From NCBI GenBank assembly GCA_963771515.1, contig CAVYTG010000002.1, forward strand, positions 46,607-110,606: a stretch of DNA of 64,000 nt. Reading direction: 5' to 3'. A program made the translations under genes and the position numbers. The notes under the pieces are model-generated. The model worked only from the letters and a program-made list of their open reading frames with translations. It made no database searches and had not been told where the DNA came from. Positions 9,617-59,683 of this stretch are shown one piece after another. The stretch comes from an uncultured Gammaproteobacteria bacterium. Its GTDB lineage: Bacteria; Pseudomonadota; Gammaproteobacteria; CAVYTG01. Each line of letters starts with the position of its first letter. The stretch's first letter is position 1.

Positions 9617-9671
9617 CAATGAGTCTATTTAAAAAGACTTCTGTTTTTTAAAACTAAAAAGGAAGCCACTG

Positions 9672-14584: not shown

Positions 14585-14706
14585 CTAGAACTTGACCCTT
14601 GGCTGGTATCATGCAAAAAATAAGCATGACCCTTTTTTCACGAATCCCGCCCGAGAGTTTTATTGACTAGTTGCAACTGTTTAACGGCTAAAGGTTGAAG
14701 ATTTTA

Positions 14707-16729: not shown

Positions 16730-17835
16730 GGGTACTGCAACTATACGTGTAAAAAGTGACGATGGTGATTAAGTAATCACAGGCGCGGTTTTAATTTTTT
16801 CCAGATCCTTATTAAATACCTGCAAATCCAGGATGTAATCGCCAAACCGCTTGATGTGTTCAGTTAAATATGGACTCAATTTAGCAAGATCTTCTTTTTT
16901 TATTACCCAGCCTTCATCCCTGAGTTGCTGGATGATTTGGCTCATATCAATAACATTCTGTAAAATAATTAGATTGGTGACCAAGGTATTATATCGGATT
17001 GCCTTTTCCATTTCAGTAACATCATTGCTGGCTACGGTTATACGTGAAGCAAATGAGATCCAGTCGCTCAGATTGTGAAATGATTCTACTTTATTGGTCT
17101 CAGCTGTAATGGACTCACGTAACTCTACATCAGAGATATATTCCAATAAAAAAATAGTGCGGATAACTCTGCCTAATTCTCTGAATGCCAAGTACAGCTG
17201 GTTTTTTCTACTTCGGGTTCCCAGTCGCTTTAACACAAGTGTAGGCGATACTTTGCCGTGTTGAATTGATAGCACCATCTGCATCATATCCTTCCAATTA
17301 TTTTCAATTAACGTCCAATCCACAGTATCCTTAAATAAGGAATCGATATGCTTATATTTTGTTTCTTTACTGGGCCTGAAGAAGGTAAGGTCTTTCCAGT
17401 TTCTGATTCTTGGCATGATATCAATACCAAATAAGTACCCAAGTCCAAAAACAGTTGCTGATTGAGATTGGGTATCACCGTGTATTTTAGTGGGCTTCAC
17501 ATCTGACTGGTTACGAAGTAATCCCTCAATGATAGCAATGGCTTCCCATACTCCACAGGGAATGAAGCTGGAGAACAAAGCAATATAGTGATCTGCGATA
17601 TGATGATAGGCGATTCCACCTTTAGCACCATATCGGATATGACTTTCAGCTAGCAGGTTTTGCTCATAGATGCTACGCAAGGTGCCATCTACACTAGCGC
17701 TCTTTCCTGTTCCCCACGCTTTTATGAGAGGAAATTGGTTGTAATAGTTAATGACTCGAGCCAACGCTGATTCTAGCTTTTTCAGATTGACATGCGATTT
17801 ATTCACCAATGCGATTGTTCTTGCGCTAATACCTA
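16730..17835 (-). pseudogene. Second Tn3-family transposase, 3' fragment with probable terminal IR
   Basis: SASVDGT, IHGDTQSQ, PRIRNWKD, TNKVESFH (ORF 16769-17887). IR-like GGGTACTGC...ATTAAG at 16730-16773 overlaps the stop codon. Confidence 0.85.
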
Positions 17836-18041
17836 TAGTGGTCCAGTTTTTGCCGTCCACTATATCCTGGGTGGACTTGCAGTTCATGACGTTAGCTCTG
17901 GATTCGCATTAGAGATGGCTGCCAGAAAGAAAGTGTCTGTCCATATTGCAAAAAAAAATTTAAACCACAATATCTAGCACCAATTCTTTCTCAAAAAACA
18001 CCATATCTTGTGTTCATTTTATTTTTTGCAACGGAGCCAAA

Positions 18042-41683: not shown

Positions 41684-42504
41684 GGCACCATCAAGTTAAC
41701 ATTTTGATGACAAAAAGAGCCCCTTTCCCCAAAATTTAGGCGCAAAAAGCCTGACTAGCTGCGAAATTCCAAATTTCTTTGGCTTCCTTAAATTTTACAC
41801 GTTGTTCTTGAGCGGTATTTTTATAGCGCCCAACCGCGACAGAAAAGATATTCCGGGTTTTCCCCATCAGAGAAAGTGTTTTCTGTACCCCTCCTGGAGA
41901 TTTAAATTTGATCAGACATTTCTCTTTTCTTCGAGTGGGCTGATGAGCGTTCTCAACCCGGTTATTCAAGCCTTTATGCTGTCTGTGCTCAGTTCCTTTG
42001 CACATATGCTGAATGGGCTTGTTATAACTCTTCAGTTTATCCGTCACAATAACACGAGGTTTTGGGTATGAGCCTAACAGCCTGGATAAAAATCGAGTGG
42101 CCGCTCTCTTGTTCCGACATTTTTGAAGTAGAACATCCAGCTCATAACCTTCAGAATCAACTGCTCGCCAGAGATAATAGGGCTCTCCATTGATTTTCAA
42201 CACCATCTCGTCTAAATGCCATTTATTCCCGGGCTTCGTTTCTCGCTTTTTGAGCACGTCTTGAAATTGATCTCCAAACTTCAAACACCAACTACGAATG
42301 GCTTCATGGCTTACCGATATACCTCGATATAAAAGTCGCTCCTTTACATCTCTATAGCTGTCATTGAATCGGTGATAACTCCATACAACCCCAATAATTT
42401 CCATCGGAAAACGGTGCCTCTTCGGCTTCTTTTGCAACATCATCAAGGATGACTCCAATATCAATTCCCAGCAGTCTAGCATAATCAGTTAACTTGACGG
42501 TGCC
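41684..42504 (-). mobile_element. IS6-family element copy 3 (821 bp)
   Basis: IRs GGCACC(A/G)TCAAGTTAAC; near-identical to the other copies. Confidence 0.95.
41736..42482 (-). CDS. IS6-family transposase
   Basis: Protein identical to copies 1 and 2. Confidence 0.95.
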   Translation of the reverse strand: MLDCWELILESSLMMLQKKPKRHRFPMEIIGVVWSYHRFNDSYRDVKERLLYRGISVSHEAIRSWCLKFGDQFQDVLKKRETKPGNKWHLDEMVLKINGEPYYLWRAVDSEGYELDVLLQKCRNKRAATRFLSRLLGSYPKPRVIVTDKLKSYNKPIQHMCKGTEHRQHKGLNNRVENAHQPTRRKEKCLIKFKSPGGVQKTLSLMGKTRNIFSVAVGRYKNTAQEQRVKFKEAKEIWNFAASQAFCA

Positions 42505-42987
42505 CTTGATCGAGGCTACTTTAGTTATTTAGTGCTCTACGAAGCCATGCGAAAAGGCATTCATCTTATTTGTCGCCTGCAGTCTGGAAGCATGAATGAA
42601 ACCATCAAGTTATTTTGGGAAAGTGATTTAACCGATACCATTATTGATTATAATCCCTCTTCCTCAGTCAAATCAGAAATAAAAAAGCAAGGATATTCTT
42701 TGAATTATAAGACAATCCCATTGCGTCTTATTAAATATAAAATTAATGATGAAACCTATGTTTGCGCAACAACACTGATGGGTGAATGCTATCCATTAGA
42801 TGATTTTCCCCGCGTTTATCATGGCCGATGGGGAATAGAAGAGTTGTATAAAATATCCAAAATGTTTATTGGTATTGAAGATTTTCACAGTAAAACTGAA
42901 CGAGGAGTCAAGCAGGAGTTGTACGCTCACGTCTTATTGATAAATAGTGAAAGGGCAATGGAAGTATCTTTATCGTGCCATTGCTAA
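42505..42987 (+). pseudogene. IS4-family transposase internal/C-terminal fragment
   Basis: LDRGYFSY from 42505; YHGRWGIEELYK; FHSKTERGVKQELYA. Confidence 0.8.
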
Positions 42988-44876: not shown

Positions 44877-47261
44877 TTAGAAAAACTGTGGGCCGCCCCC
44901 TGTGTTGTTCTCATTCGTATCATCGCTTTCTTCTTCTAGTTTTTCATGTTTCTCGAATAATTCTTGATATCTTTCAAGTAGGTATTTTTTTCCTTCTTCT
45001 AGGTTTTTATTATTATCTAATAAATCTTTATTCTCACCAGTTAACTTCTCAAGTTTTACTTTTTGATATTCATTCGTCCCATATAAAATATTGATCAAGT
45101 TATCTTGGTCTTTATTTTCTAATTCTAAACTTTGAACTTTTTCCTTAAGCTGTAAATTTTCGTTAGTTAATCTATTTCTCTCATTCGTATCATCGCTTTC
45201 TTCATTATTAGAAGACTTCGATTGATTCCTATAACCCTCATTCTCTTCTTTTAACCTTTTATTTTCTTCAATTAGCTCAATATGTTCTGCGTCTAGCTTT
45301 TCATATTTTACGAGTACGTGCTCTATTTGTTCTTCCTGACGTTCATTCTCGCTTCTTAAACCTTGAATTTCGCCTCTTAAACTTTGAATCTCTTTATTTA
45401 AACCTTGATTCTCACGTGTTAAACCTTGTTTTTCATCTGTTAATTTCTCAATCTTTGCTTCGTCCTTTGCTTTCTCTGCATATAAATTATGAACCAAGTC
45501 GTCTTGTTGTTTTACAATTACATCTAAAGTCTCTGCTCTTTCTTCATAAGCTATACATTGTTTTTTAAGCTGCAAGTTATCATTGTTTAATTCAATAATT
45601 TCCCTAGATTGCACTTCAACTACATTCTCCAGCATTACTATCTGAGTATTCCTTTCTTCTATTTCTCGATAACCTCCATTGAGCAGCCTTGTGTTGTAGG
45701 TTTGCATATTCACGAATTCTTTGAATCCTTCAAAAAAAACACCTCTCGGTAAATCTGTATGGTTTAAATAGTGTCTGAAAGATTCAACATCATTATCCTT
45801 GTAACAGTTATATAATTGCTCATAACATTCCATGACCTTTTCCACAAACTCTTTTGTGCCCCTTTTAGGGTAGGTTGCAATGAAGCTTTTCCAGGGGGGT
45901 TGATTAACAGCTAAATAGGCCAAATAAGGCAAAACTTGCTCACCCATCTGTACATCCAGCTCACCCTTTACATCTATAAAAAGTGTCCAAATACTAGATG
46001 CCTGATACTCTACCAATAGATTTACTGATTTTGTTTGCTCCCAGCCCGCCATTTGATAAAAGGGAGCTGAGGGGTTAAAGAAAATTTCTGAGAGATTTTC
46101 TCTAGATGTTTTCTCTTTAAGAAACTCAAACATACTATACAATATGTTTACCCTGCCTTCTTCTTTCGCTAATCCCAAGACAGACATTCCATTCAAATCT
46201 CTCAAAAATGGGTCGGCTCCAACTTCCAGTAATATCCGAACCATTTCTGGTTGATTTTCAATGACCGCCATATGTAATAAGCTTGACCCTTCATCATTGA
46301 CTAAAGAAGGGCTGATATTACTTTCAATCAGGTTTTTCGCTGCAAATGAAAATAACTCTTCATCCCTTTCAACATTTTGTTCTATTTCATCCAGGGTTAT
46401 CGCACTATAAAGCAGCTCGGGTGCTTCTTTTAATAAAACTTGTATTTCCTCATATTTCTCTGATAACACCTCTTTCTGTTTTTTGGTTAAATCCAAAAAA
46501 CTTCCTTTGCAGGATTTTCTCTCTCTTTCAATACTTCTACTTTCTTGACGGGATTTTTCTAGATGATTTTTAAGCGATGCAAGAACAGATTCAAACCAAT
46601 TAGAATCTTCCTGATTCTGGGTAATATCTAATAAGTATGCTTTTAACTCAGATTCAGCCTTATCAAACACATGATCCAAAAACTCATCATTGTCTTCCTC
46701 CTTTCCTGGCAAATCACCCAATATAAGGACTTTACCATCAGATAGAGAAACTCTGTTAAGGTTTTTATTCAATGGTATTTTGAGTTCTACTCTGGCTTCA
46801 CACTTACCCCTGATTTCTATCAAATCATCAAAGCAAGCATTTTCTATTTCTATCTTTTTTTCTGATAAATGCTCATCATTGACTAATCCATTTTCTATTA
46901 AGTCGCTTAGATTTTCATAACGGTCATACCAAGCTACATAAGTCTTAATTTTAAAATCTAAGACCCACTCCTGCTTATTAAAAGAGAATAAATCTTGATC
47001 AAGTTTGTTCAGTTTAAAGTTCAGATATTTTTCATAATCCTTTTGAAGGACTCTTAATAACCAATCTGCATTAATTTCCTCGGTAGACCCAGCTTCCCGG
47101 ATAGACTCAAATAATCTTTGCTCTATATTCAGTCTCAGTGTATCCAGATCAAGTTCATCTATACTGGGCACTATCTCCTCTGGTGCTAAAATATCGTTTT
47201 CTTCACCATGCATTTCTTGTGGGGTTAAATTTTGATTTATTTCAGCTGGTTCTGTTGACAT
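44877..47261 (-). CDS. Ankyrin-repeat, acidic coiled-coil protein (candidate effector)
   Basis: GSSLLHMAV...VRILLEVGADP ankyrin repeats; long heptad region; duplicated EESDDTNE. Confidence 0.8.
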   Translation of the reverse strand: MSTEPAEINQNLTPQEMHGEENDILAPEEIVPSIDELDLDTLRLNIEQRLFESIREAGSTEEINADWLLRVLQKDYEKYLNFKLNKLDQDLFSFNKQEWVLDFKIKTYVAWYDRYENLSDLIENGLVNDEHLSEKKIEIENACFDDLIEIRGKCEARVELKIPLNKNLNRVSLSDGKVLILGDLPGKEEDNDEFLDHVFDKAESELKAYLLDITQNQEDSNWFESVLASLKNHLEKSRQESRSIERERKSCKGSFLDLTKKQKEVLSEKYEEIQVLLKEAPELLYSAITLDEIEQNVERDEELFSFAAKNLIESNISPSLVNDEGSSLLHMAVIENQPEMVRILLEVGADPFLRDLNGMSVLGLAKEEGRVNILYSMFEFLKEKTSRENLSEIFFNPSAPFYQMAGWEQTKSVNLLVEYQASSIWTLFIDVKGELDVQMGEQVLPYLAYLAVNQPPWKSFIATYPKRGTKEFVEKVMECYEQLYNCYKDNDVESFRHYLNHTDLPRGVFFEGFKEFVNMQTYNTRLLNGGYREIEERNTQIVMLENVVEVQSREIIELNNDNLQLKKQCIAYEERAETLDVIVKQQDDLVHNLYAEKAKDEAKIEKLTDEKQGLTRENQGLNKEIQSLRGEIQGLRSENERQEEQIEHVLVKYEKLDAEHIELIEENKRLKEENEGYRNQSKSSNNEESDDTNERNRLTNENLQLKEKVQSLELENKDQDNLINILYGTNEYQKVKLEKLTGENKDLLDNNKNLEEGKKYLLERYQELFEKHEKLEEESDDTNENNTGGGPQFF

Positions 47262-47327: not shown

Positions 47328-49505
47328 TTATGAGAAACCTAAAATTTTCTCCTGTTCTTCTGCTTCTACTTCTTGATTCTTCAGTTTATTTCTTACCTGT
47401 TCTAGTTTCTCTATTCTAACTATGGCTTTAGCAAGATTTTCTCCTGACTTCTCTTGCTTTTTCCTTAATTCTCCAGTTTCTATTTTTAATTCTCCAGCTT
47501 CTATTTTTAATTCTTCAGTATTTACTTTTAATTTTTCATATTCTTTTCCTAGTTCCTTCAGATTTTCCCTATTTTCTTTGAATCCCTGCATTAAGAATTC
47601 AATTTCAACTTTCATCTTAGCAGTGTGATCTTCCGCTTTTCCAATGTATCCTTCTAATAAAGCATTAATTTTTCTTAATATTTCATTCTGTTCCTCAACC
47701 AGGGCAACCTTATATTCGCTATTGTATTCTTTTTGCAAAGTTAACAAAAATTCATCAACGGCGTCCAAATCCTCTTCCTGAAGGCCATATTCAAAATATT
47801 TATCTACTTTTTCTCTGAGATCAATTAACGCCTGCATAATGAGTTTAGATGTTGCAGCATCAAGATCTGATTTGCGGTCAGGATGATACTTCAACGCAAG
47901 ACTTGTCCAACTCTTTTTAAATTTTCTTTCCGCTTTCGCGATATTTCCTTCATGCGTCTTAAGCTCTATTTTTCCATCATTAAAATCAAGACAAGATTGC
48001 TTTGCATCCTTAAGCGCAGAGACAGCAATAGTAAACTCAGAGATAACCTCTTTTTCTATGCCCTTGGTTACATCTGGCATTGAAGTATTTTCTTCCCTAT
48101 GAGGAACTATTGTTATCCGATCTTTTACCTTTGCTTCTGAATCAACACTCCCTGCCCTGTTTTCCGGCACTATCACCAAAGCACGACTATTAGTAGCTTC
48201 CTCTCTTTGGGGAGGCGCGATGAATGAGTTTTTCTTTTTAGGAGTACTTGTTTTTCTACTTTGATGAACAGTATTAGGAGTAACTTTATTGCTAGATCGT
48301 GCACGATGATTCGTAGTGGAACCTGTAGTGGAATACCTTTCGACAGGATGTTGTCGGTTAAGGCTGTTATAGGTAGAGCGAGTATAGGTAGGACGAGCAT
48401 AATGCCTTATAGGATGCTGTCTTTCAGGAGACCCATAATGGATAATGTTGATTCGATGAGGGTCTCGAGGAGTGAAATAAGAGCCTAGCTTCTCACCCAT
48501 CTCTTCTAAAATTCTGACACCGGTTGCAGCTGCTGCTGTTAGTATACCTGTTGATAGTACACTTGCTGTTTGTGGCGCAAATGATGCACCAAAAGCCATA
48601 GCTGATGTCGTGGTTAACCATCCCTTCACTCCTAAATATGCAAACAGGAGTCCTTCGGATAAAGCAGCATGCATACTCATTGGAAGTAATGCGCCTAAAC
48701 CTTGGAACGCAACAGGCCCTAAAAACACAACGGCTGGCATGTACAATACAATACTGGCTAAATAACTAACCCCTCTGAACACATTACCTAAAATGATTCC
48801 GGGAACTCCACCTGCTGACTTGCCTAATGCATAGGCCATGGATGCGGCTTTAATCGGAGAGGTGATCAGCATCCCCACTCCAACCCAAAGCTTGCTGACT
48901 GCATATACCAAAGATAAAGCTGGAAAAGCAATGACACCTGCTGCGATCCCTAATCCCTGTTTGATGCCACTCCACTCTCCTATCTTTGAAGCTAAAGCAT
49001 GTATCCCTACCCCTGTCACACTATTTAATAAATCAGGAATGACTTCTGTAATAACCTTCAGAAGGCTTACGGGTGTGGTTAAGCAAAAACGGGCAATATT
49101 AAATAATGCAGCAAAAGGCATCAGGAAAAGCAGAAAATCATGATCTTTATTCCAACCTATCAAATCCTGCAGAAGTTCTTTTAAGGTTGGTTTTCTGATC
49201 GAACCTCCTCTTTCATCTTCTCTAAGACGATTGGGTAAACCAAAAAAACTGGTAAGCCCTGACTTGAGATCATATTCCTTTATGACATCTCTTTTAACGA
49301 CCTTATGACCGTTCACGGAAGCTTTAGATGACAATGGTACAACCCCATCGCCTGGATAGGCATCAAAAAAGACTTTTTTTAGTAGTATATTGAATAAATC
49401 ACTTTCGTTAGTCCGCAAGCCTGCTTCTCTGTAAATGCTTTGTTTTGTACGGGGTAGAAAATAAGTTTTTAATCGATCCAAAAAGCTGCGCTGCTCTTGA
49501 GCCAT
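47328..49505 (-). CDS. Multi-TM protein with J-domain and coiled coil (candidate effector)
   Basis: Hydrophobic N-terminal half; FKKSWTSLALKYHPDR; C-terminal heptads. Confidence 0.75.
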   Translation of the reverse strand: MAQEQRSFLDRLKTYFLPRTKQSIYREAGLRTNESDLFNILLKKVFFDAYPGDGVVPLSSKASVNGHKVVKRDVIKEYDLKSGLTSFFGLPNRLREDERGGSIRKPTLKELLQDLIGWNKDHDFLLFLMPFAALFNIARFCLTTPVSLLKVITEVIPDLLNSVTGVGIHALASKIGEWSGIKQGLGIAAGVIAFPALSLVYAVSKLWVGVGMLITSPIKAASMAYALGKSAGGVPGIILGNVFRGVSYLASIVLYMPAVVFLGPVAFQGLGALLPMSMHAALSEGLLFAYLGVKGWLTTTSAMAFGASFAPQTASVLSTGILTAAAATGVRILEEMGEKLGSYFTPRDPHRINIIHYGSPERQHPIRHYARPTYTRSTYNSLNRQHPVERYSTTGSTTNHRARSSNKVTPNTVHQSRKTSTPKKKNSFIAPPQREEATNSRALVIVPENRAGSVDSEAKVKDRITIVPHREENTSMPDVTKGIEKEVISEFTIAVSALKDAKQSCLDFNDGKIELKTHEGNIAKAERKFKKSWTSLALKYHPDRKSDLDAATSKLIMQALIDLREKVDKYFEYGLQEEDLDAVDEFLLTLQKEYNSEYKVALVEEQNEILRKINALLEGYIGKAEDHTAKMKVEIEFLMQGFKENRENLKELGKEYEKLKVNTEELKIEAGELKIETGELRKKQEKSGENLAKAIVRIEKLEQVRNKLKNQEVEAEEQEKILGFS

Positions 49506-49775: not shown

Positions 49776-49801
49776 CCGGAGTCCATCTAACTGGACTCCG
49801 G
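49776..49801. terminator. GC-rich hairpin after the trb/traG/toxin operon
   Basis: CCGGAGTCCA-N6-TGGACTCCGG, 6 bp beyond the toxin stop; T tract is on the plus side. Confidence 0.5.
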
Positions 49802-49807
49802 TTTTTA

Positions 49808-50860
49808 TCATCTTTTTCTGCTTCGACCCTCTGTTAGATTTTGTCTGTTTTGCATAACCTGCCCTCTTGCATGTTTAAGCACAGCCACCAAATCTTCTCT
49901 CTTGAGCTGATTACTTTTCATCCGCTCTGATATCTGCTCGAATCCTCTCCTCTGCTTGATCGTAATATCTTCGCTTAAACTGGCGTTGGTAAAACCTCTA
50001 TCAGCCACGATTTTCTCTGCGATTTCTCCTGCCTCTCGATTACACTCAACAGCCTCTTTGGAATATTCCCTGGCAACCTCGGGATTTTCAGACAGATGTT
50101 GCATCTTTTGATTGAACAGACGACCAACCTCTGTTTGCTTCTCAACATAATCTTGCAACTTTTGTTTTGATTCCTGATCTAATTCATAACCAGGGATGGA
50201 GAAGGTCTGCTCTCTTGATTCCAACCGTTCTCTCATATTATGACAAATATCATCAAGGTCATAAGCTGATAAAATGGTATCCATCTCAAATGCCTGCTCA
50301 AACCGCTCCTTAAGCTCTGAACCTCTAAAAAGTCTTGCAAGCTCCTTTTGCTGATGGTCAGAAAGAAGATCAGGATAGTTTCTTAAAATAAAGTGGACAT
50401 CATACACATCTCTTGCCTGCGTCCTGCCTTTGAGAGCCTCAACCTTTTGATCAGCCAAAACCGGTAATTGATAAACCTTGATTCCATTTACCAGATGGGA
50501 AGGTTGTAATTCCTGATTCCGATAGGACACTTCTATTTTCAGACGATTGCCCTGGCTGATAGGGGTATCATAAACCACACGGTATCTTGTCGTTGTATCG
50601 GTATTTTTAGGAGTATCAATAGACCTGATTTTAACTGGCGCTTTAACAGCCTGCCGGATACGATTTTCAAGATTTATCTTTTTAGTGCTGTCAAAATCTA
50701 AATCTTCCGAATGACGATCCAGTCCATAGGCAAGCAGTAAGGCAGTTCCACCTTTTAAGACAAGCGGTGTATCTGAGACAGCTTTGGCAATTGATGACAT
50801 CACATCAACATGCCACTGATTATCATCAAGGTTATTTTTGGTTAAATCATCTTGAGCCAT
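49808..50860 (-). CDS. AbiEii-family nucleotidyltransferase toxin with ~135-aa C-terminal extension
   Basis: LVLKGGTALLLAYGLDRHSEDLDF, KIEVSYR, KVEALKGRTQARDVYD; basic tail GRSRKR. Confidence 0.88.
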   Translation of the reverse strand: MAQDDLTKNNLDDNQWHVDVMSSIAKAVSDTPLVLKGGTALLLAYGLDRHSEDLDFDSTKKINLENRIRQAVKAPVKIRSIDTPKNTDTTTRYRVVYDTPISQGNRLKIEVSYRNQELQPSHLVNGIKVYQLPVLADQKVEALKGRTQARDVYDVHFILRNYPDLLSDHQQKELARLFRGSELKERFEQAFEMDTILSAYDLDDICHNMRERLESREQTFSIPGYELDQESKQKLQDYVEKQTEVGRLFNQKMQHLSENPEVAREYSKEAVECNREAGEIAEKIVADRGFTNASLSEDITIKQRRGFEQISERMKSNQLKREDLVAVLKHARGQVMQNRQNLTEGRSRKR

Positions 50861-51312
50861 TGCTCTAAAAGCTCCTGTTCTGGTTTGGATAAGTGAGATT
50901 CAAGTTTTTGGATATGCTGAAAAAGCTTTTCTTTTTGCCAACCGGTATCAAACCATCTATCGATTTCAATATAATTTGGAATCTGTTGATTTTTGATGGA
51001 AAGATAAATCATGTCCAGGATCGCCCTGTAGTGATTTGCAGCATAAACTTCTTCGTCTAAAGGAATATTAACGCCAAGCTTTCTTAAAATGTCAGAACAC
51101 TCATAAACTCCAAAGCTTCCCAAAATAGCATTGGTATTCCAGCGCTCCCCTGCACCTGCTATAAAAATCTTAGGTTTCTTACTTCCCCTTCCAAAAAATG
51201 CCTCTCTAAAATGCCAATCTCCATGACTTTCTTCAGATGGGATATTAAGTGCTGTCATTCCTGTTAAATAACGACCTTGATGGGTACTTAATAGCTTAGA
51301 CATTTTCTTCAA
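50842..51312 (-). CDS. Putative cognate antitoxin of the AbiEii toxin
   Basis: Overlaps the toxin start; YLTGMTALNI...GDWH...AANHYRAILD resembles AbiEi-like partners. Confidence 0.65.
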   Translation of the reverse strand: MKKMSKLLSTHQGRYLTGMTALNIPSEESHGDWHFREAFFGRGSKKPKIFIAGAGERWNTNAILGSFGVYECSDILRKLGVNIPLDEEVYAANHYRAILDMIYLSIKNQQIPNYIEIDRWFDTGWQKEKLFQHIQKLESHLSKPEQELLEQWLKMI

Positions 51313-53272
51313 CCAGTTGTGGATTCTGTTTATTATACTCTGCTCTCAAGACTTTTTTGCCTTCCAGTGGATTTGGATCAAATTTGCCTGCAAAGTCAGG
51401 ATGGTAAATGTATTGTACTTTTCGGCAATGAATGGCCTTGGTATGTCTTAGAAAAACATACTGCTCATCGATGGGAAGTTCTCTGATCTTGTTCATAGGG
51501 ATAAGGTCAACGCCCGTCTCGTGCACACTCTCCCCTTCCCCTTTTGAAACGGTACCACCGAAAAGCTGTGCCTGCTGTCTAGAGTCTCCTGAATTCGTTG
51601 ATAAGGTCTTTGTCAATACCGTCTTCTGACCACCCAAGGTTTTAATCCATTCCATGGTGTCTGGATCATCATTGGCAAAAAACTGTTTTAATCGAAGGCT
51701 CTTAAAAAGATCGGGTTTGTCATAAAGCTCAATTTGAGAAAGCGCCTGAAATACCGTCCAGATTCGAATACCTCTTGCCCGCAAAACCTCTATACACTTC
51801 TCAACATCTGGCACCCCGCCTAACTGGGCTAACTCCTCCAGCAAAAAAAGGATTCTTTCCTCGGGTAAGTCGCAAGGCTCTGATTTGATGATCATCCCCA
51901 TTAATAGGGACATCAGCATTCTAAAAAGACGATTGTGCTCCTGTGTTTGATCCTCTGGAATAATCACAAAAATATCCATGCTCCCTGCCAGAAATTCCTT
52001 AAGATCAAAGTTGCTTTTGGTAAGTGTTGTCTGGATATTACTATCGCTAATCCAATCGATTTGTCGATAGGTCGTTGACAGGATACTTCCCCTTTCATCA
52101 GACCCTACCCGTTCAATCTGATTGGCAGCCGCCGCTGCTCTTCCGCCTGATTCTTTCATCTCGCTCAAGGTCATTCTGGCCTCTTCATAACTTTCAGATA
52201 AAAGATTATAGAGATTGGGTAAATTTCTCCCCTCTAAATTTCCCTTCATTAAAAAATCCACATATCCTCTGATTAATATTTTGGCATTATCATCAAAGTG
52301 GGTCACAGCCCCTCCTTCATTGATAATAAAAGAGGCTGCAAATTCATTGATCATCCTGTCCCTTTCTGCCTCATTCTCTGGTATGAAATCAAAAGGATTG
52401 ATTGTATATTTTTTAAGGAGATAATCAGGTTTTCCAAAACTAAAGTCTTTTCCTTGTATGATATTAAAAGGATCAATGGTGACCACCTGCTTGCCAAAAG
52501 CCTTCGACCTGTGTCTTGCCGTGACTGCCCAAAGCTCCCCTTTAGGATCAAAAACGACCACAGGTCCTTTGTGGGAAAGCAATACTGGGATACTGGAACT
52601 ACTGGTTTTACCACCACCTTCAGGAGATATGACCAGTTTGTTATAAAGCGGTAAATATAAGGAGTTCCCCTTCTCATCTACACCAATTAAAGGACCATTA
52701 TTGGGATCATAAGCATTTAATGCCTTAAGGTCTTTCTCTGATGCAAACTGGGCGGTTCCAAAATTCCCGCTGGTATCTTCCAGCTTCCCCTCTTCATTAA
52801 ACTGCTTTTTCCTGATTAAGGAGTACATCAAAATTAAGGGAATGAACAGTAAAAAAAGCGGGATAAACTGATAAATATTGTCCTCGAAAACATCGATACT
52901 TGTTGAAAGATTACTCCAGAAAGGCAAATGCTTTGCCATGCCAAAGCTCATGTTTGTATAAAACAGCAAGCCTATTTCAACGAAAACAATGGCTGCCTGT
53001 ATAAAAAACTGCAACTGTAATAATCTTTTGATCCAGCTAAGGCTCATTTTATTTTGATGCCTAAAGCCATATGTCAGAAAGATCATCACCAGGATAATAA
53101 AAAAATACAGGCAATTCCCCACCAGTATTTCATTGCTCTTAGGATAGAGGAAAACATGAGATTTGGTGCTCTTTAAAAAATGAACCACTGGTGCAGGCAA
53201 TAATGTTGCCAAAGGTAGTGCCATCAGAATCAATAAATCTAATGCCTTTTTACTCATGATCCCCTCCCTCAA
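51296..53272 (-). CDS. traG: TraG/VirD4 type IV coupling protein
   Basis: N-terminal TMs, FGTAQFA, SPEGGGKT, FDPKGEL, LLEELAQLG; start probably 53257. Confidence 0.9.
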   Translation of the reverse strand: MREGIMSKKALDLLILMALPLATLLPAPVVHFLKSTKSHVFLYPKSNEILVGNCLYFFIILVMIFLTYGFRHQNKMSLSWIKRLLQLQFFIQAAIVFVEIGLLFYTNMSFGMAKHLPFWSNLSTSIDVFEDNIYQFIPLFLLFIPLILMYSLIRKKQFNEEGKLEDTSGNFGTAQFASEKDLKALNAYDPNNGPLIGVDEKGNSLYLPLYNKLVISPEGGGKTSSSSIPVLLSHKGPVVVFDPKGELWAVTARHRSKAFGKQVVTIDPFNIIQGKDFSFGKPDYLLKKYTINPFDFIPENEAERDRMINEFAASFIINEGGAVTHFDDNAKILIRGYVDFLMKGNLEGRNLPNLYNLLSESYEEARMTLSEMKESGGRAAAAANQIERVGSDERGSILSTTYRQIDWISDSNIQTTLTKSNFDLKEFLAGSMDIFVIIPEDQTQEHNRLFRMLMSLLMGMIIKSEPCDLPEERILFLLEELAQLGGVPDVEKCIEVLRARGIRIWTVFQALSQIELYDKPDLFKSLRLKQFFANDDPDTMEWIKTLGGQKTVLTKTLSTNSGDSRQQAQLFGGTVSKGEGESVHETGVDLIPMNKIRELPIDEQYVFLRHTKAIHCRKVQYIYHPDFAGKFDPNPLEGKKVLRAEYNKQNPQLVEENV

Positions 53273-53918
53273 TGTTTGCAGGCTTTATTGGTCTTTGACG
53301 TGCTAACTCCTTTACTCTTTCATAAAAACCATCAACTCTTGTAGATGCCGTGTAAGGGTTTAGTGGCTCTTGAGGTTGGCTTGCTTCTCTTCCTGGCAAG
53401 TGCACTTTATCAGCTCTAACCAGGCTTTCTTTCCTGGCTTCCTTTTTGCTGAAAAAACGGCCAGCCTTCTTCATTTGAGCTAACACTTTGTCAACATACC
53501 CATTTTTAATACCCCGTTCAAAACTGCCAGTATTGTATGCACTTAAAGCAGAGAGGAATGCCTTCTCACCTTCGCCATATTTTAAAGAGGCTCTTTGATA
53601 GTTCCTTATCAAAATCTGGCTTCCAGTTTTGATATTCTGGCAAGGATTAAACAGGGCGCTTAATGGCATACCCATTTTCTTATAGTTTCTTGAGTTAATT
53701 TGCATAAGCCCCATATCAATGTCATAACCCTTATCCATCAGGGATTGGGCGATAGCAACTGCTTCACCCGGTGATTGAGGCTGTTTTTTAAGCCTGAAGT
53801 TTGGGTGATTAACGCCTATCTGAAATGGCTTTGCACCTGATTCATGCTTTAGGATGGCAAAGACTGTTTGAGGGGCTAACCGATGGGCACAATGTTCTAT
53901 TGCAGCTTGTAAGTCCAA
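53250..53918 (-). CDS. VirB1-like lytic transglycosylase
   Basis: HESG, IDMGLMQINS, ALSAYNTG motifs. Confidence 0.9.
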   Translation of the reverse strand: MDLQAAIEHCAHRLAPQTVFAILKHESGAKPFQIGVNHPNFRLKKQPQSPGEAVAIAQSLMDKGYDIDMGLMQINSRNYKKMGMPLSALFNPCQNIKTGSQILIRNYQRASLKYGEGEKAFLSALSAYNTGSFERGIKNGYVDKVLAQMKKAGRFFSKKEARKESLVRADKVHLPGREASQPQEPLNPYTASTRVDGFYERVKELARQRPIKPANIEGGDHE

Positions 53919-53930
53919 AATAGTTTCTCC

Positions 53931-54524
53931 TCAATGTTTAAAAATAAGCAGTGGCTTTACGCCACTTATGATTTCTTCTTTTAAAACCTTTCCAAAATAC
54001 TTACTGTCCAAGCTACAAGGATGTTTAGTATTTAGAACAAAATACTCACCATTTTTCAGATGATAAGTCGCATTTTGGTTTATTTGCCTGCAAGGTAAAG
54101 GTTTATTAAATTTCTCTTCTTGCAATCTAACTCCATTAACCCATACTTTTATTCCTTTTAGTTTGACCTGATCTCCTTCAATGGCGACTATCTTCTTTAG
54201 TAACGGCACATGGCCACTGAAACAGCTGCCAGGAGACAGATATCTTTGGTAAGACACTCCTACCCGCTCTTTCAATAGGCAAACCAGGACATAATCTCCT
54301 TTTTTAAAGCCGCTCATTTCTTTCCAAACCCCTATAGGCGCCGATTCACTCAGATTAACTCTGATGCCTGCTAAAAGCCCCAAAGAACCCAGAAGCAAAA
54401 TAGAAACAAATAGCCAAAAGCAAACCGCTTCCAGATAACCAAACCTAATAAGGCTTGTAGGGCGCTGCAAAAACGATATCTTTTGAAACCTTGATGACAA
54501 ACTCATAACCATTACCAATTTCAA
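53931..54524 (-). CDS. traF: TraF-type S26 pilin maturation peptidase (true start probably near the trbI end)
   Basis: NLSESAPIG, LLKKIVA, SLDSKYFG motifs. Confidence 0.85.
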   Translation of the reverse strand: MKLVMVMSLSSRFQKISFLQRPTSLIRFGYLEAVCFWLFVSILLLGSLGLLAGIRVNLSESAPIGVWKEMSGFKKGDYVLVCLLKERVGVSYQRYLSPGSCFSGHVPLLKKIVAIEGDQVKLKGIKVWVNGVRLQEEKFNKPLPCRQINQNATYHLKNGEYFVLNTKHPCSLDSKYFGKVLKEEIISGVKPLLIFKH

Positions 54525-55602
54525 TGGTGGGTTGGATGTTCAGATTTTTTTCACTGACCTTCATTCCAAGGGCTGTTAGTTGCTGTCCGATACTGGCTGC
54601 TGCTAACTGTTGGGTCGTGACAACATCAGCTTGTTGTTTCTGAGGTTGCGAAAGCTGCAAGCCAACTGATAACGCCGAGGTTAATAGTGCTCCTGAGATT
54701 AATTTGGCGTAATGATTATTTACCCGATCCTTAAAGCCGCCATAACCGCCTTTGTCAGAACCTGTCATGCCGCTTAGGTTAAGAGAAGACCCATCAGGAA
54801 ATATCAAACGGGTCCAAGCAACTTGTATACGTTCCTGACCATAGACAATCTGGTTATCATAAAGCCCGAAAAGCCTTGTTCCTTTAGGAATTAAAAGGTA
54901 ATTCCCTGAAGCTGTATCATAAACATCCTCTTTAACTTGCCCAATAATCTCACCTGGCAGGTCTGAATTAATCCCTGTAATCAGGGTGCCTGTTATGACA
55001 GACCCTGCTTTTATTTCATAAGGGGAAATTGAAGCTTTTCTGGTATCTGGTAATATTTCTGGTCGATCTTTAGATGCATTAAAGCGGCTGGCCGCCTCAT
55101 TTAAGGAAGCAGCGCCTTTTTCAAGATCATTTGATGCCTCTTTGGCATTATCTGATTTTTTATCTTCCCCGGATACCAGATTATCCCATCCTTCCAAACG
55201 ACTATCAGCACTCATTGCCTTGAGGTGCTGCTCTATCTGGTAGCGCCTTAGTTCTTCTCTTTTCCTGTCTACAGGATTTTCATTTTCATCAGAAGTCACT
55301 TCTTGCCTTGAGTCTGAATGACTGGAAGATTCATCCTTTACATGCCTTTCCTTATCTTCCCTAACGATCCGATCCGCCATCTCTTTCCCTTCATCAATGG
55401 CCGGATATAAGTTTTCTGGCACTTTGCTTCCTTCAAATTTCTCAGGCTCATCTCCCCTGGACATAATCCCATAAAATGCAGTGCCAATTAGTGCAGTTGC
55501 TAAAATCCCAATGATGATCATGGCACGTGTACCTAAATGCACTCCCTTATCTGGTGTGCCATGGAGTTTAATAGCAGGCTTAACCTTTTTTGAGTGTTCC
55601 AT
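54445..55602 (-). CDS. trbI: TrbI/VirB10
   Basis: GINSDLPG, LIPKGTRLFG, WTRLIFPDG, NIQPTI motifs. Confidence 0.93.
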   Translation of the reverse strand: MEHSKKVKPAIKLHGTPDKGVHLGTRAMIIIGILATALIGTAFYGIMSRGDEPEKFEGSKVPENLYPAIDEGKEMADRIVREDKERHVKDESSSHSDSRQEVTSDENENPVDRKREELRRYQIEQHLKAMSADSRLEGWDNLVSGEDKKSDNAKEASNDLEKGAASLNEAASRFNASKDRPEILPDTRKASISPYEIKAGSVITGTLITGINSDLPGEIIGQVKEDVYDTASGNYLLIPKGTRLFGLYDNQIVYGQERIQVAWTRLIFPDGSSLNLSGMTGSDKGGYGGFKDRVNNHYAKLISGALLTSALSVGLQLSQPQKQQADVVTTQQLAAASIGQQLTALGMKVSEKNLNIQPTIEIGNGYEFVIKVSKDIVFAAPYKPY

Positions 55603-55606
55603 GGTT

Positions 55607-56503
55607 TTATCTCACACATTGTCCAAAAAGATTTTTCTTCTGGCAGGAGCGAATAATCTTCACATATCGCTGACCTTTGCCTGTGCCAATGACAAGAGCT
55701 GCCTGGCTAAACAGCTTATCTACGATGTAGTAATCATCCTTGACTCGATAGTTCACAAGCTCTGCCCTTTTATCTCTTCCAATTAATAAAAGACTAGGTG
55801 CCTCCCTGTGCGCATAGCTTCTTGGCATTTGAATATAAACTTTCCTGCCATCATCAAACACCCTGACGGGTCTAAAATATTGAGCGCCACGAGTACAGAA
55901 AATTTGATAATGAAAATTCAGATGATCAGGTGAAATACCAGGAAGTCTTGATACTGTACGTGCCCTATCTCTTGCAGCTATTTTAATCTTTGCTTCCCAT
56001 GCTTTTTTGGCATTTTCAGGATAGTAAAACCCTGCTCGTGTTACATATTGCCTATGCAGAGAATCAAGTGAACGCAGACGGATATAATAAGTGCGACGGT
56101 TAGTTGGGATAATCGCATTGGTTTCAAGGTTATAATTTCTAGGTTTGATCACTACGTGATAGGTTCTCTTTTCTCCTTCTCCTGAAATGGCAGGTGTGAT
56201 GTTCCAGTTAACTTTATCACCCACATGAGGCGCATCGGTTGGTACCTCTCCAGCTTCCAGTTCAATGTCACAAACATATAAAGGCGAACAAATGATCATC
56301 GGGCTTGATTGACCATAGGTAAAAACCACTTTGCCATCATCCTCCATTGCAGGCTTTGCTTTTCTGTCATTTGCCCATTTTGTAGAAAGATTAAGCGCTT
56401 CAATGGGTGGTGCCACCGCATGTTTTGCAGGTTTTTTTTGGGCAAAGCCTGCTGCTGGAATCAGGCTCCCAACACACAGGATAATCAAAGATATTTTTTT
56501 CAT
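55607..56503 (-). CDS. trbG: TrbG/VirB9
   Basis: Signal peptide, DIELEAGE, TNRRTY, PVRVFDDG, VNYRV. Confidence 0.93.
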   Translation of the reverse strand: MKKISLIILCVGSLIPAAGFAQKKPAKHAVAPPIEALNLSTKWANDRKAKPAMEDDGKVVFTYGQSSPMIICSPLYVCDIELEAGEVPTDAPHVGDKVNWNITPAISGEGEKRTYHVVIKPRNYNLETNAIIPTNRRTYYIRLRSLDSLHRQYVTRAGFYYPENAKKAWEAKIKIAARDRARTVSRLPGISPDHLNFHYQIFCTRGAQYFRPVRVFDDGRKVYIQMPRSYAHREAPSLLLIGRDKRAELVNYRVKDDYYIVDKLFSQAALVIGTGKGQRYVKIIRSCQKKNLFGQCVR

Positions 56504-56539
56504 GACTTAGGTTCTCCCTCAGAATTAAAGCAGATAAAA

Positions 56540-57298
56540 TTAAAGTTCTTGCGACCAGTTAATGTCGGTAATAAAAAGACCCAAAGGGTTAGTTAACATC
56601 AAACGTTCATCATTGACCTGCTGAAAAGCAATATTAAAAAAGGCTTTCCATCTAAGGGTATTTTTCTCTTTTCCATCAGGGTTTCTGATAATTTCTACCC
56701 ACTCTACCTGCCAAGTATTTTTGGAAAGGGGTAGCAAAGTTTTCACCTGAACACTTACGGTATGCATCTTTGCCACCTTCAAAGGAGAGTTGCTTTTATA
56801 AAACCCATTGATTTTTTCAACCGCAGGGGAGTTGGCAGGCAACATGGAATAAAGCGCATGAATCGATTTGTTCTGAACCCTGGAATCTGTTGTGACCATT
56901 CGCCAGTTATTTAAAAAGCTCACCAGATAAGCCTTGATAAGCTTCTCATCCATAACACCAACTTTTTGGGCAAATCCTGCCCTTGCCGCCTTTCCATGTT
57001 GATCAACCTCTACAATGTAGGGAACATAAGTCTTTTGAGATGCAATCCAGAACATGCCAATCACTGCAAAAAGAGCTGTTACAGATGAAATGGCTGCAAG
57101 GTATCGATAGTTTTTTGCTCTTGAAATATAATCCCCATAGCGTTCATTCCACTCCTTTTTAGCTGCCAGAAACGGATCATAAAGCTCCTGCTTTTCTACA
57201 GTTTCTTCCTTTTGTTCTTTCTGGGATGTCTTACCTTTTAAAACGGTACTCGACTTTTCCATCAGCATGGAAACATATTTTTGGACAGTATCTTTCAT
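56540..57298 (-). CDS. trbF: TrbF/VirB8
   Basis: EWNERYG, PYIVEVD, WQVEW, NPLGLFI motifs. Confidence 0.92.
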   Translation of the reverse strand: MKDTVQKYVSMLMEKSSTVLKGKTSQKEQKEETVEKQELYDPFLAAKKEWNERYGDYISRAKNYRYLAAISSVTALFAVIGMFWIASQKTYVPYIVEVDQHGKAARAGFAQKVGVMDEKLIKAYLVSFLNNWRMVTTDSRVQNKSIHALYSMLPANSPAVEKINGFYKSNSPLKVAKMHTVSVQVKTLLPLSKNTWQVEWVEIIRNPDGKEKNTLRWKAFFNIAFQQVNDERLMLTNPLGLFITDINWSQEL

Positions 57299-57322
57299 TG
57301 AAATCTCCCTCGCTAATATTAA

Positions 57323-58711
57323 CTAGTCAGTGTGGTTCATACGGATTTGAGGTGTACCGCCTGGTCCCTCATCATTTGCAATGTGAGCACCTCTATTTCT
57401 TCTACCAGGTCTTTTAAAATTTCTTCTAAGTCCAGAACCATCCGAAGTAGTACTTGCTATCGCCTTGCTAACATCAGATGTATGACTTTTAGATGATGAA
57501 CTATTACTGCCTGAACTGGTTGATCCAGATGACTTTGAGGGGCCTTGTGTATTTTCACTTGTTGTATGGGTTGAGTGACTGCTACTTGGGCTAGCCGCTG
57601 TTGCACCTTTAGAAGAAGCATGACCTCCTCCACCTCCTTGAGTCCTGGGAGATGGTCCAGAGGGTGAGCCACCAGAGCCACGATTAGAAAGCACATTTCT
57701 GATACTGTTAAACCCTTCTCTACCCGATTTAATTGCAGTACCGATACCATTTACACCGGCCTTGGTAGCCGCAACACCCATAGTACCTGCCGCAGCCGCA
57801 GTTGCTACAACGCCAACAGCAGCTCCTGTTACATTACCCGCTGATAGAGAAGGCGCACCAGACAACATGCTAGCTGCAAGTTTTGGAACACCCCAGCTAA
57901 GTCCTGCCAATATTAAAGATCCAGCTAAAACATAAAAAATGTGGTTGTAATCAACTTTTTCTGCATCCAAAAATATATTTCCCCATTTATCTGCATTCGC
58001 AGTTCCCACCCCTATAATCAGATAAATGGTGAAAAGCCTGACACCTATGGAAAACGCATAACCAATATATTTTTGCGCATAATCAGTGGTCCATCGACTT
58101 CCGCCAAGACCTAAGAAAAGCACTCCCGCTCCCGTAACAATATAACTTTCAATCAGAGTAACTAACATTTGATAGGCAATACACAAAAAAGCTAAAAAAA
58201 TTAAAAGTGCTGCAATCACCCCTACAAACCCAGGTCCAACATCGCTCAAAATGCTTAACTTTTTAAGCGATTCAAGCAATGCAACTGAAGTATTAATGCC
58301 AAGATCTAAAACTTTGGATGGATTTAATGCACCTACATTGGCAGCCAAACCACCTGCCTTGGCAAAGCCATTTATAATCATTGGAAGCCATTGGTCCGCC
58401 TGTTGCACCAACATATAAAAAAAGCTGATACTCATGATTTTTTTCAAAAGTGCAGCGGTTAGGCTTTGGGTATCCCGCTCTTTCAAAAGCCAGGTTATCG
58501 CAGACCAGGCAAACTCAATGGCTGCCAACTTCCAAAAAAGATTTCTGGCAATATCCTGAAGTTTGGGAAACCATTTTAGAGACTCTATCTGATAGTCCCT
58601 TGCAATCGTTGACATAACATTGCTTGCCATTACATCCGTACAAAAAAATATCATCAGCCCTGTCAGAAGCCACCAAAATTTAAAAGGTATATTAAAAGCC
58701 TTTATCTGCAT
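57323..58711 (-). CDS. trbL: TrbL/VirB6
   Basis: Polytopic; LGLGGSRWT; S/G-rich tail. Confidence 0.9.
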   Translation of the reverse strand: MQIKAFNIPFKFWWLLTGLMIFFCTDVMASNVMSTIARDYQIESLKWFPKLQDIARNLFWKLAAIEFAWSAITWLLKERDTQSLTAALLKKIMSISFFYMLVQQADQWLPMIINGFAKAGGLAANVGALNPSKVLDLGINTSVALLESLKKLSILSDVGPGFVGVIAALLIFLAFLCIAYQMLVTLIESYIVTGAGVLFLGLGGSRWTTDYAQKYIGYAFSIGVRLFTIYLIIGVGTANADKWGNIFLDAEKVDYNHIFYVLAGSLILAGLSWGVPKLAASMLSGAPSLSAGNVTGAAVGVVATAAAAGTMGVAATKAGVNGIGTAIKSGREGFNSIRNVLSNRGSGGSPSGPSPRTQGGGGGHASSKGATAASPSSSHSTHTTSENTQGPSKSSGSTSSGSNSSSSKSHTSDVSKAIASTTSDGSGLRRNFKRPGRRNRGAHIANDEGPGGTPQIRMNHTD

Positions 58712-58722
58712 GATTTGCTCTC

Positions 58723-59013
58723 TTATTCGCGATCCAATGTCCCGCCTTTGAACCCTTCATGTTCCTCGAGCTTATTTGGTTTTAACATCCAGGCAGAAAT
58801 CGCCTCTTTACAGCTAAATTTCTCATCTTCTGTTAAATGCTTTCCTTTCTCCTGACTTTCCATACAGAGCTTCATCATCGTCTGAGCCTCATCAAGGTGA
58901 GCCTTATAATACTGATAATCTTTTGGCGGTAATTTTTCTTTTTCACAACCAGCGAGCAGCACAAAGGCACTAACGACCATTGCCATCGTGATTTTTCTAA
59001 ACTTATCTTGCAT
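58723..59013 (-). CDS. trbK: Entry-exclusion lipoprotein (TrbK/EexN-like)
   Basis: Lipobox LAGC, YYKAH; lies between trbJ and trbL; shares C-terminal FKGGTLD with TrbJ. Confidence 0.75.
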   Translation of the reverse strand: MQDKFRKITMAMVVSAFVLLAGCEKEKLPPKDYQYYKAHLDEAQTMMKLCMESQEKGKHLTEDEKFSCKEAISAWMLKPNKLEEHEGFKGGTLDRE

Positions 59014-59683
59014 CTAAAGTGCCTCCTTTAAAGGTTTCATAATACTCCCCTCGCCCAGCCTTTTTCTTTGGAAAAAGACGTTCTCTTGAAGCCCTAAGAT
59101 GAGCTTCCTTTTGTTCTTGTGCTGCCATGTAAACATTTTGTGATTGTATTTGTGACATCAATAACTGCCTTACCTTCTGCATCTGGGCAAGCTGCTCTAT
59201 CGCAATTTCATTGTTCACCTGGATAGCCTCCATACGACCCCCTGTTTTTTCAGTTTGTTGTTTTAGCCTTTGAAGATGACGAGTTTCTCTTGCCAGCTGC
59301 TCGTTTTGTGTTTGAGTGATCGCTAAACCTGCCTGCAAAGTATCAATGGCCGTATTTGACCAAAGCTGATAATCTCCCTTGTATTGCTTAGCATCCTTAT
59401 AGCCCGGAAATCTTTTGGAAAAAAGATCATGCTGGCTAAGATAGGTAATACCACTAACAGTTTGCGTCGCCTTTTCCAGTGCCGCCAGATCACCTTCTAT
59501 ATCTGTCCATTCATGCTGCGTTATGCCCTTTGTGTTTTTTTCCAAATCATGCAGCTGCTCCTTGATATCCCCTAATGAAGAAATGATTTTGGCTATGTCC
59601 ACAGGGCTAAATGCTAGAACCTGGCTTGATGCCAGACACAAGCTCACCAACAACCATAAAAAAAATGTATTCTCTCTTTTCAT
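59003..59683 (-). CDS. trbJ: TrbJ/VirB5
   Basis: Signal peptide, GRMEAIQVNNEIA, QKVRQLLMSQ. Confidence 0.85.
   Translation of the reverse strand: MKRENTFFLWLLVSLCLASSQVLAFSPVDIAKIISSLGDIKEQLHDLEKNTKGITQHEWTDIEGDLAALEKATQTVSGITYLSQHDLFSKRFPGYKDAKQYKGDYQLWSNTAIDTLQAGLAITQTQNEQLARETRHLQRLKQQTEKTGGRMEAIQVNNEIAIEQLAQMQKVRQLLMSQIQSQNVYMAAQEQKEAHLRASRERLFPKKKAGRGEYYETFKGGTLDAR

Follow-up and report, generated by a model that had tools for sequence, protein, structure and literature searches.

The 64,000-nucleotide window analysed here, positions 46607–110606 of contig C2 (CAVYTG010000002.1) from the genome of an uncultured gammaproteobacterium, contains a P-type (Trb) conjugation operon that ends in a type IV toxin-antitoxin (TA) pair, AbiEi/AbiEii, coupled to the coupling protein gene traG. 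The AbiEii toxin is made up of two domains, a nucleotidyltransferase and a C-terminal tail that is homologous to the ends of TraA-like MOBQ relaxases and of FIC toxins. Is this tail still an export signal? Our comparative analysis suggests that it is: with a probability of roughly 0.6, the toxin is conjugation-delivered in the manner of VbhT of Bartonella, its tail serving as a TraG-dependent signal with which it enters mating partners. The features of the module are listed below. All coordinates are positions within the window.

53250–63890, minus strand: rest of the Trb operon (SLT transglycosylase, TraF peptidase, TrbI, TrbG, TrbF, TrbL, TrbJ, TrbE, TrbD, TrbC, TrbB), every frame open
51296–53272, minus strand: traG, TraG/VirD4-type coupling protein (T4CP), 658 aa; PF02534 E 2e-50, profile positions 15–451 of 468
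50842–51312, minus strand: AbiEi-type short antitoxin, 156 aa, overlapping both of its neighbours; PADLOC PDLC02280 E 1.6e-45, residues 6–154
49808–50860, minus strand: AbiEii toxin, 350 aa, AbiEii domain and C-terminal tail
50195–50860, minus strand: AbiEii (DUF1814) nucleotidyltransferase domain, toxin residues 1–222; PF08843, PADLOC PDLC02307
49811–50194, minus strand: toxin tail, residues 223–350, helical, with the basic end EGRSRKR; homologous to the C-termini of TraA-like MOBQ relaxases and of FIC toxins
49776–49801, no strand assigned: inverted repeat with a 10-bp stem (7 G-C pairs) and a 6-nt loop, starting 6 nt past the toxin stop

The operon runs unbroken from 63890 down to 53250 in the order TrbB, TrbC, TrbD, TrbE, TrbJ, TrbL, TrbF, TrbG, TrbI, TraF peptidase and SLT transglycosylase, and continues into traG. 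TraG, with its T4SS-DNA_transf and TraG-D_C domains, also matches PF12696 (E 6e-17), and its P-loop, GGGKT, is invariant across 7 TraG orthologues. The ATG of the antitoxin gene lies inside the last codons of traG and that of the toxin gene 19 nt before the antitoxin stop, overlaps that fit translational coupling of the three genes. An initial annotation of the window had described this arrangement, with the overlapping genes closing the trb operon and a hairpin behind them, and the genes and coordinates are as it gave them. The next gene on the minus strand begins 302 nt beyond the toxin gene, and the G+C content falls there from ~41% to ~35%. This drop suggests that the TA pair is compositionally part of the conjugation backbone. 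The antitoxin has no match in Pfam or NCBIfam.

Nucleotidyltransferases of the DUF1814 family block translation by modifying the acceptor ends of tRNA. The toxin in the window matches PF08843 (AbiEii) with E 2e-22 over residues 21–175 (80.5 bits against a cut-off of 22.5) and PADLOC PDLC02307 with E 1e-56 over residues 14–222, which correspond to profile positions 5–204 of 219; the domain is complete. The toxin holds GGTAL...SEDLDFD and RTQARDVYD, the assignment of which to nucleotidyltransferase motifs I–IV is a reading by eye, without a characterised toxin as reference. The patterns KGGTALLLAYGLDR.SEDLDFDS and RT.ARD.YD are invariant in all four AbiEii proteins that have the tail. Typical of these nucleotidyltransferases are a pol-beta-type G[GS]...D.D motif and C-terminal K/R...D motifs. 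Four conserved motifs have been described for this toxin family, and DUF1814 toxins, MenT3 among them, inactivate the acceptor stems of tRNA (PMC7450476).

The tail is an addition to the AbiEii domain. This follows from the alignment of the toxin with plasmid sequences by tblastn, which is confined to residues 10–205 in all 15 records, and from the shortness of most of the nearest AbiEii proteins. The AlphaFold2 model of the tail, based on an alignment of eight tails, is helical (pLDDT 85.5), with four main helices at tail residues 7–33, 38–64, 84–93 and 99–122 and a 20-residue connector. The initial annotation had spoken of a helical C-terminus of ~135 aa ending in basic GRSRKR; the helical nature, as predicted, and the ending stand, and the length is 128 aa. 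In 16 of the 18 aligned tails, the final 20 residues include more basic (K+R) than acidic (D+E) ones. The tail of the toxin is full length and in an open frame, and has kept both the conserved positions of the family and the basic end.

A phmmer search with the tail alone, among 1.84 billion protein representatives, gave 8 matches including the toxin itself. Three are FIC proteins of 328–332 aa that end in the same tail (P0005–P0007; PF02661 at E ~1e-16, HPFREGNGRT present). The others are a FIC remnant with the tail, a Toprim_3 fragment with the tail, a free-standing tail of 129 aa (P0003) and one spurious repeat protein. Two further FIC proteins with the tail were found among longer proteins with profile A1, the profile of the tail alignment.

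With profile A1, 400 genomes sampled from the same class were found to have the tail in 8 genomes, at 13 places outside the genome of the window. Ten of these places are the extreme C-termini of frames of 671–1994 aa in 6 related genomes, and three are small, stop-interrupted frames in genome G376. In nine of the ten large frames the tail follows a MobA_MobL domain (E 1e-54 to 1e-69) and then an AAA_30 helicase, and four of these nine also have DUF7146 and Toprim_3. The tenth, in G340, is a broken copy with the helicase only and a TAG within the tail. Profile A1 held two relaxase-like rows, and the comparison was therefore repeated with clean profiles. A relaxase-only profile of ten tails, searched against 11,983 six-frame open reading frames of at least 50 aa from the genome of the window, matches only the toxin tail (E 7.3e-16) and an orphan tail (E 4.5e-14). 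In the other direction, a toxin-only profile of six tails matches 9 of the 10 relaxase C-termini at E ≤ 1.5e-4 (Z = 50,000). Because these non-circular profiles match in both directions, the homology between the tail and the relaxases is real. The comparison with TraA/MobQ relaxase C-termini had been named beforehand as the check on the relaxase-like tail proposed by the initial annotation, and it bears that proposal out. The AbiEii toxin has almost certainly been fused to a C-terminal domain of relaxase type.

The tail also goes with a particular TraG. In the same sample of the class, TraG orthologues (50–57% identity, at a cut of at least 50%) are present in G156, G179, G182, G196 and G376 as well as in the genome of the window, and the tail is found in six of these six genomes. 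Among the other 394 genomes it is found in two, G336, which is 66% complete, and G340, with its broken relaxase. The TraG of G279 is only 34% identical, and this genome has no tail. The co-occurrence is an association among related genomes and not a statistical test. In G179 and G182, each with two elements, TraG lies 3–10 kb from the tail-bearing relaxase, with cargo genes in between.

TraG is presumed to be the receptor of the toxin tail. The complex predicted for TraG residues 165–657 and the tail has a score of 0.43, and the best control reached 0.20; at least 86% of the contacts agree across three runs, and the partner pLDDT is at least 78. Among solved complexes, 58 of 80 reach the mark for this score, and among mismatched pairs 2 of 110 do, counts that are only rough since own alignments were used. 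At scores of 0.60 or less, the mark is reached by only 7 of the 80 solved complexes and by both of the passing mismatches. The weak predicted contact would also be expected if the role of the tail were fertility or entry control, with the toxin, or a free orphan peptide, docked on TraG so as to regulate or inhibit it and the toxin not exported. Free-standing tails do exist, as P0003 and as orphan frames in the window and in G376. However, the orphan frames resemble what decaying relaxases would leave behind, with a helicase fragment beside them in G376, and no precedent for such control was found in the literature searched. We regard docking of this kind as very improbable.

Is the tail simply a common part of AbiEii proteins, as the initial annotation had to reckon with? 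The best 120 of 290 AbiEii clusters include the toxin itself, leaving 119 nearest clusters for comparison, and only three of these (P0012, P0028 and P0033; E 1e-31 to 3e-23) have the tail. Of the 30 relatives of at least 270 aa, three have this tail, one is a fusion of AbiEii and FIC, and the rest have at least four other types of extension. The fusion (P0032, 452 aa) consists of AbiEii and then a FIC domain, two toxin domains in one chain. Another extension, with the consensus roughly AYTFW...EADW...HSPGAVT, is found on P0064, P0094, P0102, P0105, P0114, P0116, P0118 and P0121. It is also C-terminal in Rhizobium Fic family proteins, in a Xanthomonas DUF6036 nucleotidyltransferase and in the MobV relaxase of 3-kb Klebsiella plasmids (L214–L216), and may be a second portable signal.

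Pattern scans with A4, a profile of the four tail-bearing AbiEii proteins, gave 80 species-genome loci and 80 metagenome loci, from which those of highest identity were examined (30 of 80 and 13 of 80, respectively). This tail, as defined by profile A2, is absent from the 30 species-genome and 13 metagenome loci, and pattern scans with single proteins (the window toxin and P0012) gave no relatives. An AbiEi homologue precedes AbiEii in 27 of the 30 species-genome loci. In the closest two of the 30 (L041 4863–10906 and L042 1281–7261), with a toxin domain 48% identical to that of the window toxin, a TraA-like relaxase of ~1500 aa, AbiEi and an AbiEii protein of 328–329 aa are encoded in that order. 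The tail of these AbiEii proteins belongs to a different sequence family and is 34% identical to the last 70–100 residues of the neighbouring relaxase (E 2e-11 and 2e-12). This is an independent replicate, the VbhTA arrangement of pVbh rebuilt with AbiE and another tail. AbiEii proteins thus have at least two unrelated tail families that match relaxases, and a third that also occurs in FIC proteins, in another nucleotidyltransferase and in a MobV relaxase. Helicobacter pylori contigs L057, L059, L061 and L073 encode AbiEi/AbiEii pairs that are ~40% identical to the window pair, with AbiEii frames of 256–267 aa; in L061, VirB11-like and VirD4-like genes are found 7–10 kb from the AbiE pair.

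In a tree of 21 tails, the AbiEii tails are scattered; every bootstrap tree needs 4 changes for the 4 rows. The tree is built on a short alignment, with weak support at several forks, and the orphan and a truncated row (L024) were left out as too short. The window tail lies in a clade with FIC tails (support 93/97), the P0012 tail pairs with a FIC tail (99/97), and the P0028 tail is among relaxase tails. As judged from these sequences, the same tail appears to move between relaxases, FIC toxins and AbiEii toxins.

These distributions bear on whether the pair is an ordinary AbiE module for plasmid addiction or phage defence that rides in the conjugation operon, its tail a relic or structural appendage without an export role. 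Stand-alone AbiE TA and abortive-infection systems are common (PMC7450476; PADLOC matches), and 89 of the 119 nearest AbiEii clusters have no extension (<270 aa). Decay is also plausible, because the TraA relaxase has been lost and insertion sequence (IS) copies are many. However, the tail has been kept whole, open and basic at its end, and the AbiEii clade has at least two unrelated families of relaxase-type tail, each fitting its own context, which is hard to explain without selection. The tree, within the limits of a short alignment with many weak forks, likewise shows repeated exchange and not passive inheritance. An ordinary module is in our judgement rather unlikely.

A different destination is conceivable for an exported toxin. 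IcmQ is encoded on the main contig, the chromosome, which indicates that the genome has a Dot/Icm system. The tail might send the nucleotidyltransferase into a eukaryotic host through Dot/Icm or Trb, as the Bartonella effector proteins (Beps) evolved from VbhT-like toxins. Legionella Dot/Icm can mobilise a MOBQ plasmid, and IcmQ is also found in 3 of the 5 tail-bearing relatives. In addition, the proteins encoded next to the module are eukaryote-like: one has ankyrin repeats, one a J-domain-like stretch, and one is a WD40 protein of 1729 aa. The route from interbacterial toxin to host effector has been published for FIC-BID proteins (PMC5675462). The tail, however, follows TraG orthologues in six of six genomes, including two in which IcmQ was not found, and the toxin gene is coupled to traG and has kept its antitoxin, as would be expected of a toxin acting on bacteria. 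With the relaxase-only profile there is no other protein with this tail in the genome but the decayed orphan, and hence no family of effectors on this signal. Delivery to a host seems improbable to us.

If the tail belongs with a relaxase, where is the relaxase? The following features elsewhere in the window concern its loss.

26186–26407, plus strand: orphan relaxase tail, a 73-aa frame holding the last ~55 residues of a lost TraA-type relaxase; relaxase-only profile E 4.5e-14
2534–3196 (also placed at 2399–3184), plus strand: second copy of TraG, truncated to its C-terminal part and 59% identical to residues 380–640 of the intact TraG, among IS copies
10266–11813, plus strand: TrwB coupling protein
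11807–14584, plus strand: TrwC MOBF relaxase, the only relaxase found in the genome, without the tail

The homology between the toxin tail and the orphan tail, claimed in the initial annotation, is evident in pairwise comparison (32% identity over 50 aa, E 5e-7) and independently with the relaxase-only profile. Searched by tblastn against the genome, relaxases L018 and L019 find the orphan at E 5e-6 and 2e-5, and all ten relaxases together find only the orphan tail (26237–26404) and the similarity of their helicase to TrwC. No relaxase or helicase remnant was found upstream of the orphan. The orphan is closest to relaxase tails of the G182 type, and its plus-strand orientation fits a former TraA gene that converged on traG, as in G179 and G182. 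Similar orphan tails are found in G376 with a helicase fragment (L028 4509–4733 and 6033–6572). Neither MobA_MobL (PF03389) nor MOBP (PF03432) relaxase domains were found in the genome, which is 95% complete. TrwC was considered as the source of the toxin tail and rejected, since there is no similarity. The truncated second TraG looks like the remnant of a second Trb/TraG element. On the sequence, the Trb/TraG system is intact, its TraA-type client has decayed, and the toxin is the one tail-bearing protein still intact in the genome.

Several of these observations count against export of the toxin by conjugation. With no TraA-type relaxase in the genome, the system may be decaying. The toxin tail is not close to any local sequence, the orphan included, which means that the fusion is old or imported and that its match to this TraG is assumed. 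No AbiE-like gene lies between TraG and the relaxase in the four related elements of G179 and G182. Most of the nearest AbiEii clusters are those without an extension, and 27 of the 30 species-genome loci are without a T4SS (type IV secretion system) gene detected within 10 kb, as judged by BLAST with the window proteins, a weak detector. The complex score is a weak pass; by the calibration, most such passes are wrong unless the proposed contact was already likely. Lastly, the hairpin at 49776–49801 is not a canonical sense-strand terminator, because its T-run is on the plus strand only.

We nevertheless favour delivery of the toxin by conjugation. In the mechanism that we propose, the toxin would have acquired the C-terminal recruiting domain, four helices and then a basic end, of TraA-like MOBQ relaxases belonging to the same Trb/TraG element family. 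TraG would recognise and bind the tail of the toxin as it would that of a relaxase, and the Trb channel would deliver the unfolded toxin into the mating partner. There the toxin would act until the antitoxin gene, brought in by the plasmid, begins to be expressed. The plasmid may benefit through competitor killing or through enforced plasmid acceptance, the roles put forward in the initial annotation. The reason for a plasmid to send VbhT has been left open (PMC5675462), and for the window toxin, too, the possible reasons are several: killing of non-recipients, enforced retention or help in establishment.

A wider proposal has two parts, and we offer it as a speculation that we doubt more than we believe. 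First, the Trb/TraG machine of this intracellular bacterium might be in transition to a dedicated injector of toxins or effectors, because the TraA relaxase has been lost and the toxin is what remains intact with the tail. Second, short AbiEii proteins across bacteria might repeatedly capture the recruiting domain of the local relaxase, and would then constitute a widespread, unrecognised class of conjugation-delivered translation toxins. With its Dot/Icm system and the loss of the cognate relaxase, the organism is a possible natural intermediate between conjugation and effector secretion.

The module is found in a genome of 2.23 Mb in six contigs, the sole member of its order among the species representatives compared. 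Contig C2 (126,692 bp, 39.7% GC), at about 127 kb, is probably a plasmid; a DNA-level search of the locus among plasmids gave no match. The contig contains the Trb operon, genes for two coupling proteins, a fragment of a third such gene, the TrwC relaxase, Tn3-type and IS elements, and eukaryote-like cargo. An IS6-type element of ~820 bp is present in three copies (858–1666, 4382–5205 and 41684–42507) that are mutually 99.6–99.9% identical. Two of these flank ~36 kb that include the TrwB/TrwC module, Tn3-type transposase genes, the giant WD40 gene, the orphan tail and polyhydroxyalkanoate genes. Within 5896–17887, a complete Tn3-family transposase and its resolvase (5896–9616) on one side and a partial Tn3 transposase gene (16769–17887) on the other enclose the genes for TrwB, TrwC and a YhcG-type nuclease, and a transposon may have brought in the MOBF transfer module. 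There are two genes for YhcG/DUF1016 PDDEXK nucleases, both on the plus strand, one after TrwC (14695–15723) and one just after the orphan relaxase tail (27272–28381).

The eukaryote-like cargo consists of a 1729-aa WD40 protein with internal repeats that are ~82% identical (19088–24277, plus strand), a WD40 fragment (25146–25715, plus strand), a 794-aa ankyrin and coiled-coil protein (44877–47261, minus strand) and a 725-aa membrane protein with a weak J-domain match (47328–49505, minus strand). The two cargo genes adjoining the toxin sit in a stretch of ~35% G+C.

TA toxins have been proposed to be repeatedly recruited as substrates of conjugative T4SS, the examples being FIC and PezT/Zeta toxins with BID, all from alphaproteobacteria (Harms et al., PMC5675462). 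The toxin described here extends that idea to a third toxin family, AbiEii/DUF1814, to a second family of recruiting domain that is not detectably BID, and to another bacterial class. The literature searched gave no description of an AbiEii toxin that carries a T4SS signal, and supplementary figure S3 of PMC5675462, outside that search, could bear on this; the accessible part of the text of PMC5675462 makes no mention of AbiE or nucleotidyltransferase toxins. If the tail is a portable TraG signal, it provides a defined module of ~130 aa for studying the choice of substrates by coupling proteins, and it points to the delivery of toxins together with DNA as something general to conjugation.

The BID domain is a bundle of four helices, ~100 aa in length, with a hook on top and a basic tail behind it, and it is carried by alphaproteobacterial relaxases, FIC, PezT and Zeta toxins and Beps (PMC6509941). 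The window tail has in common with BID its position, size, helical nature and basic end, its sharing by relaxases and toxins and its linkage to a T4SS. It has no detectable match to BID in sequence or fold. Profiles A1 and A2 found no BID entry among all PDB chain sequences, the best matches being to unrelated proteins (E 0.26 and 0.043). With hhalign, the probability for A2 against the C-terminal 180 residues of 4 alphaproteobacterial TraA proteins was 0.1, from a shallow alignment that may not contain the BID region. Foldseek gave 117 PDB matches to the tail model, none at E ≤ 0.001 and no BID among the best 50 of the 117; helical bundles are hard for this method. As nothing in these searches was significant, we rejected filing the tail as a BID domain. 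It would be BID-like in role and not a demonstrated member of the BID family.

The tail-bearing relaxases are of the same kind as Ti-type TraA (MOBQ, MobA/MobL and a RecD-like helicase), with which they share 32–36% identity over 74–99% of their length, and the T4SS of the window, with its TraG, TraF peptidase and Trb genes, likewise resembles the Ti type. Unlike the relaxases with the tail, Ti-type TraA has C-terminal 180 residues that do not align with the tail family (the hhalign probability of 0.1 above). The stand-alone AbiE pair of Streptococcus agalactiae (AbiEi/AbiEii) and MenAT of Mycobacterium tuberculosis have toxins of the same fold family, with its conserved motifs, and likewise an AbiEi-type antitoxin encoded upstream (PMC7450476). 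Unlike the proposed action of the window toxin, their toxins act inside the producing cell, and they are without a relaxase-type tail; the window antitoxin, in turn, is a short form of 156 aa that escapes Pfam and NCBIfam. PezT/Zeta-BID proteins of alphaproteobacterial conjugative plasmids (Chelativorans plasmid 1 and others) are likewise non-FIC TA toxins with a relaxase-type signal. They are found between T4SS and DNA transfer and replication (Dtr) genes, PezT-BID has been proposed as a conjugative T4SS substrate, and their translocation is deduced from context only, as for the window toxin (PMC5675462, PMC6509941). The window toxin differs from them in toxin family, signal family and bacterial class.

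The closest parallel is VbhT/VbhA. VbhT of Bartonella schoenbuchensis plasmid pVbh combines a FicT toxin with the BID signal of a TraA relaxase in a tail described as virtually identical to that of TraA, and its secretion through the conjugative Vbh T4SS has been shown by CRAfT (PMC5675462). It is an AMP-transferase of the FIC family, whereas the window toxin belongs to a type IV TA pair and is a nucleotidyltransferase (AbiEii/DUF1814). The window toxin is associated with a Trb (P-type) T4SS in a gammaproteobacterium, its cognate relaxase is gone, and its tail is distant from the local remnant. In both systems, however, a TA toxin has a helical C-terminal domain with a basic end that is common to TraA-type (MobA/MobL and helicase) relaxases, and in both a conjugative plasmid encodes the module, antitoxin gene first, beside its T4SS and coupling protein genes. 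The parallel with VbhT drawn in the initial annotation turns out to be closer than it had claimed, for the tail of the window toxin is itself fused elsewhere to FIC toxins. Judged by its sequence, the toxin appears to be the nucleotidyltransferase counterpart of VbhT in a Dot/Icm-bearing gammaproteobacterium.

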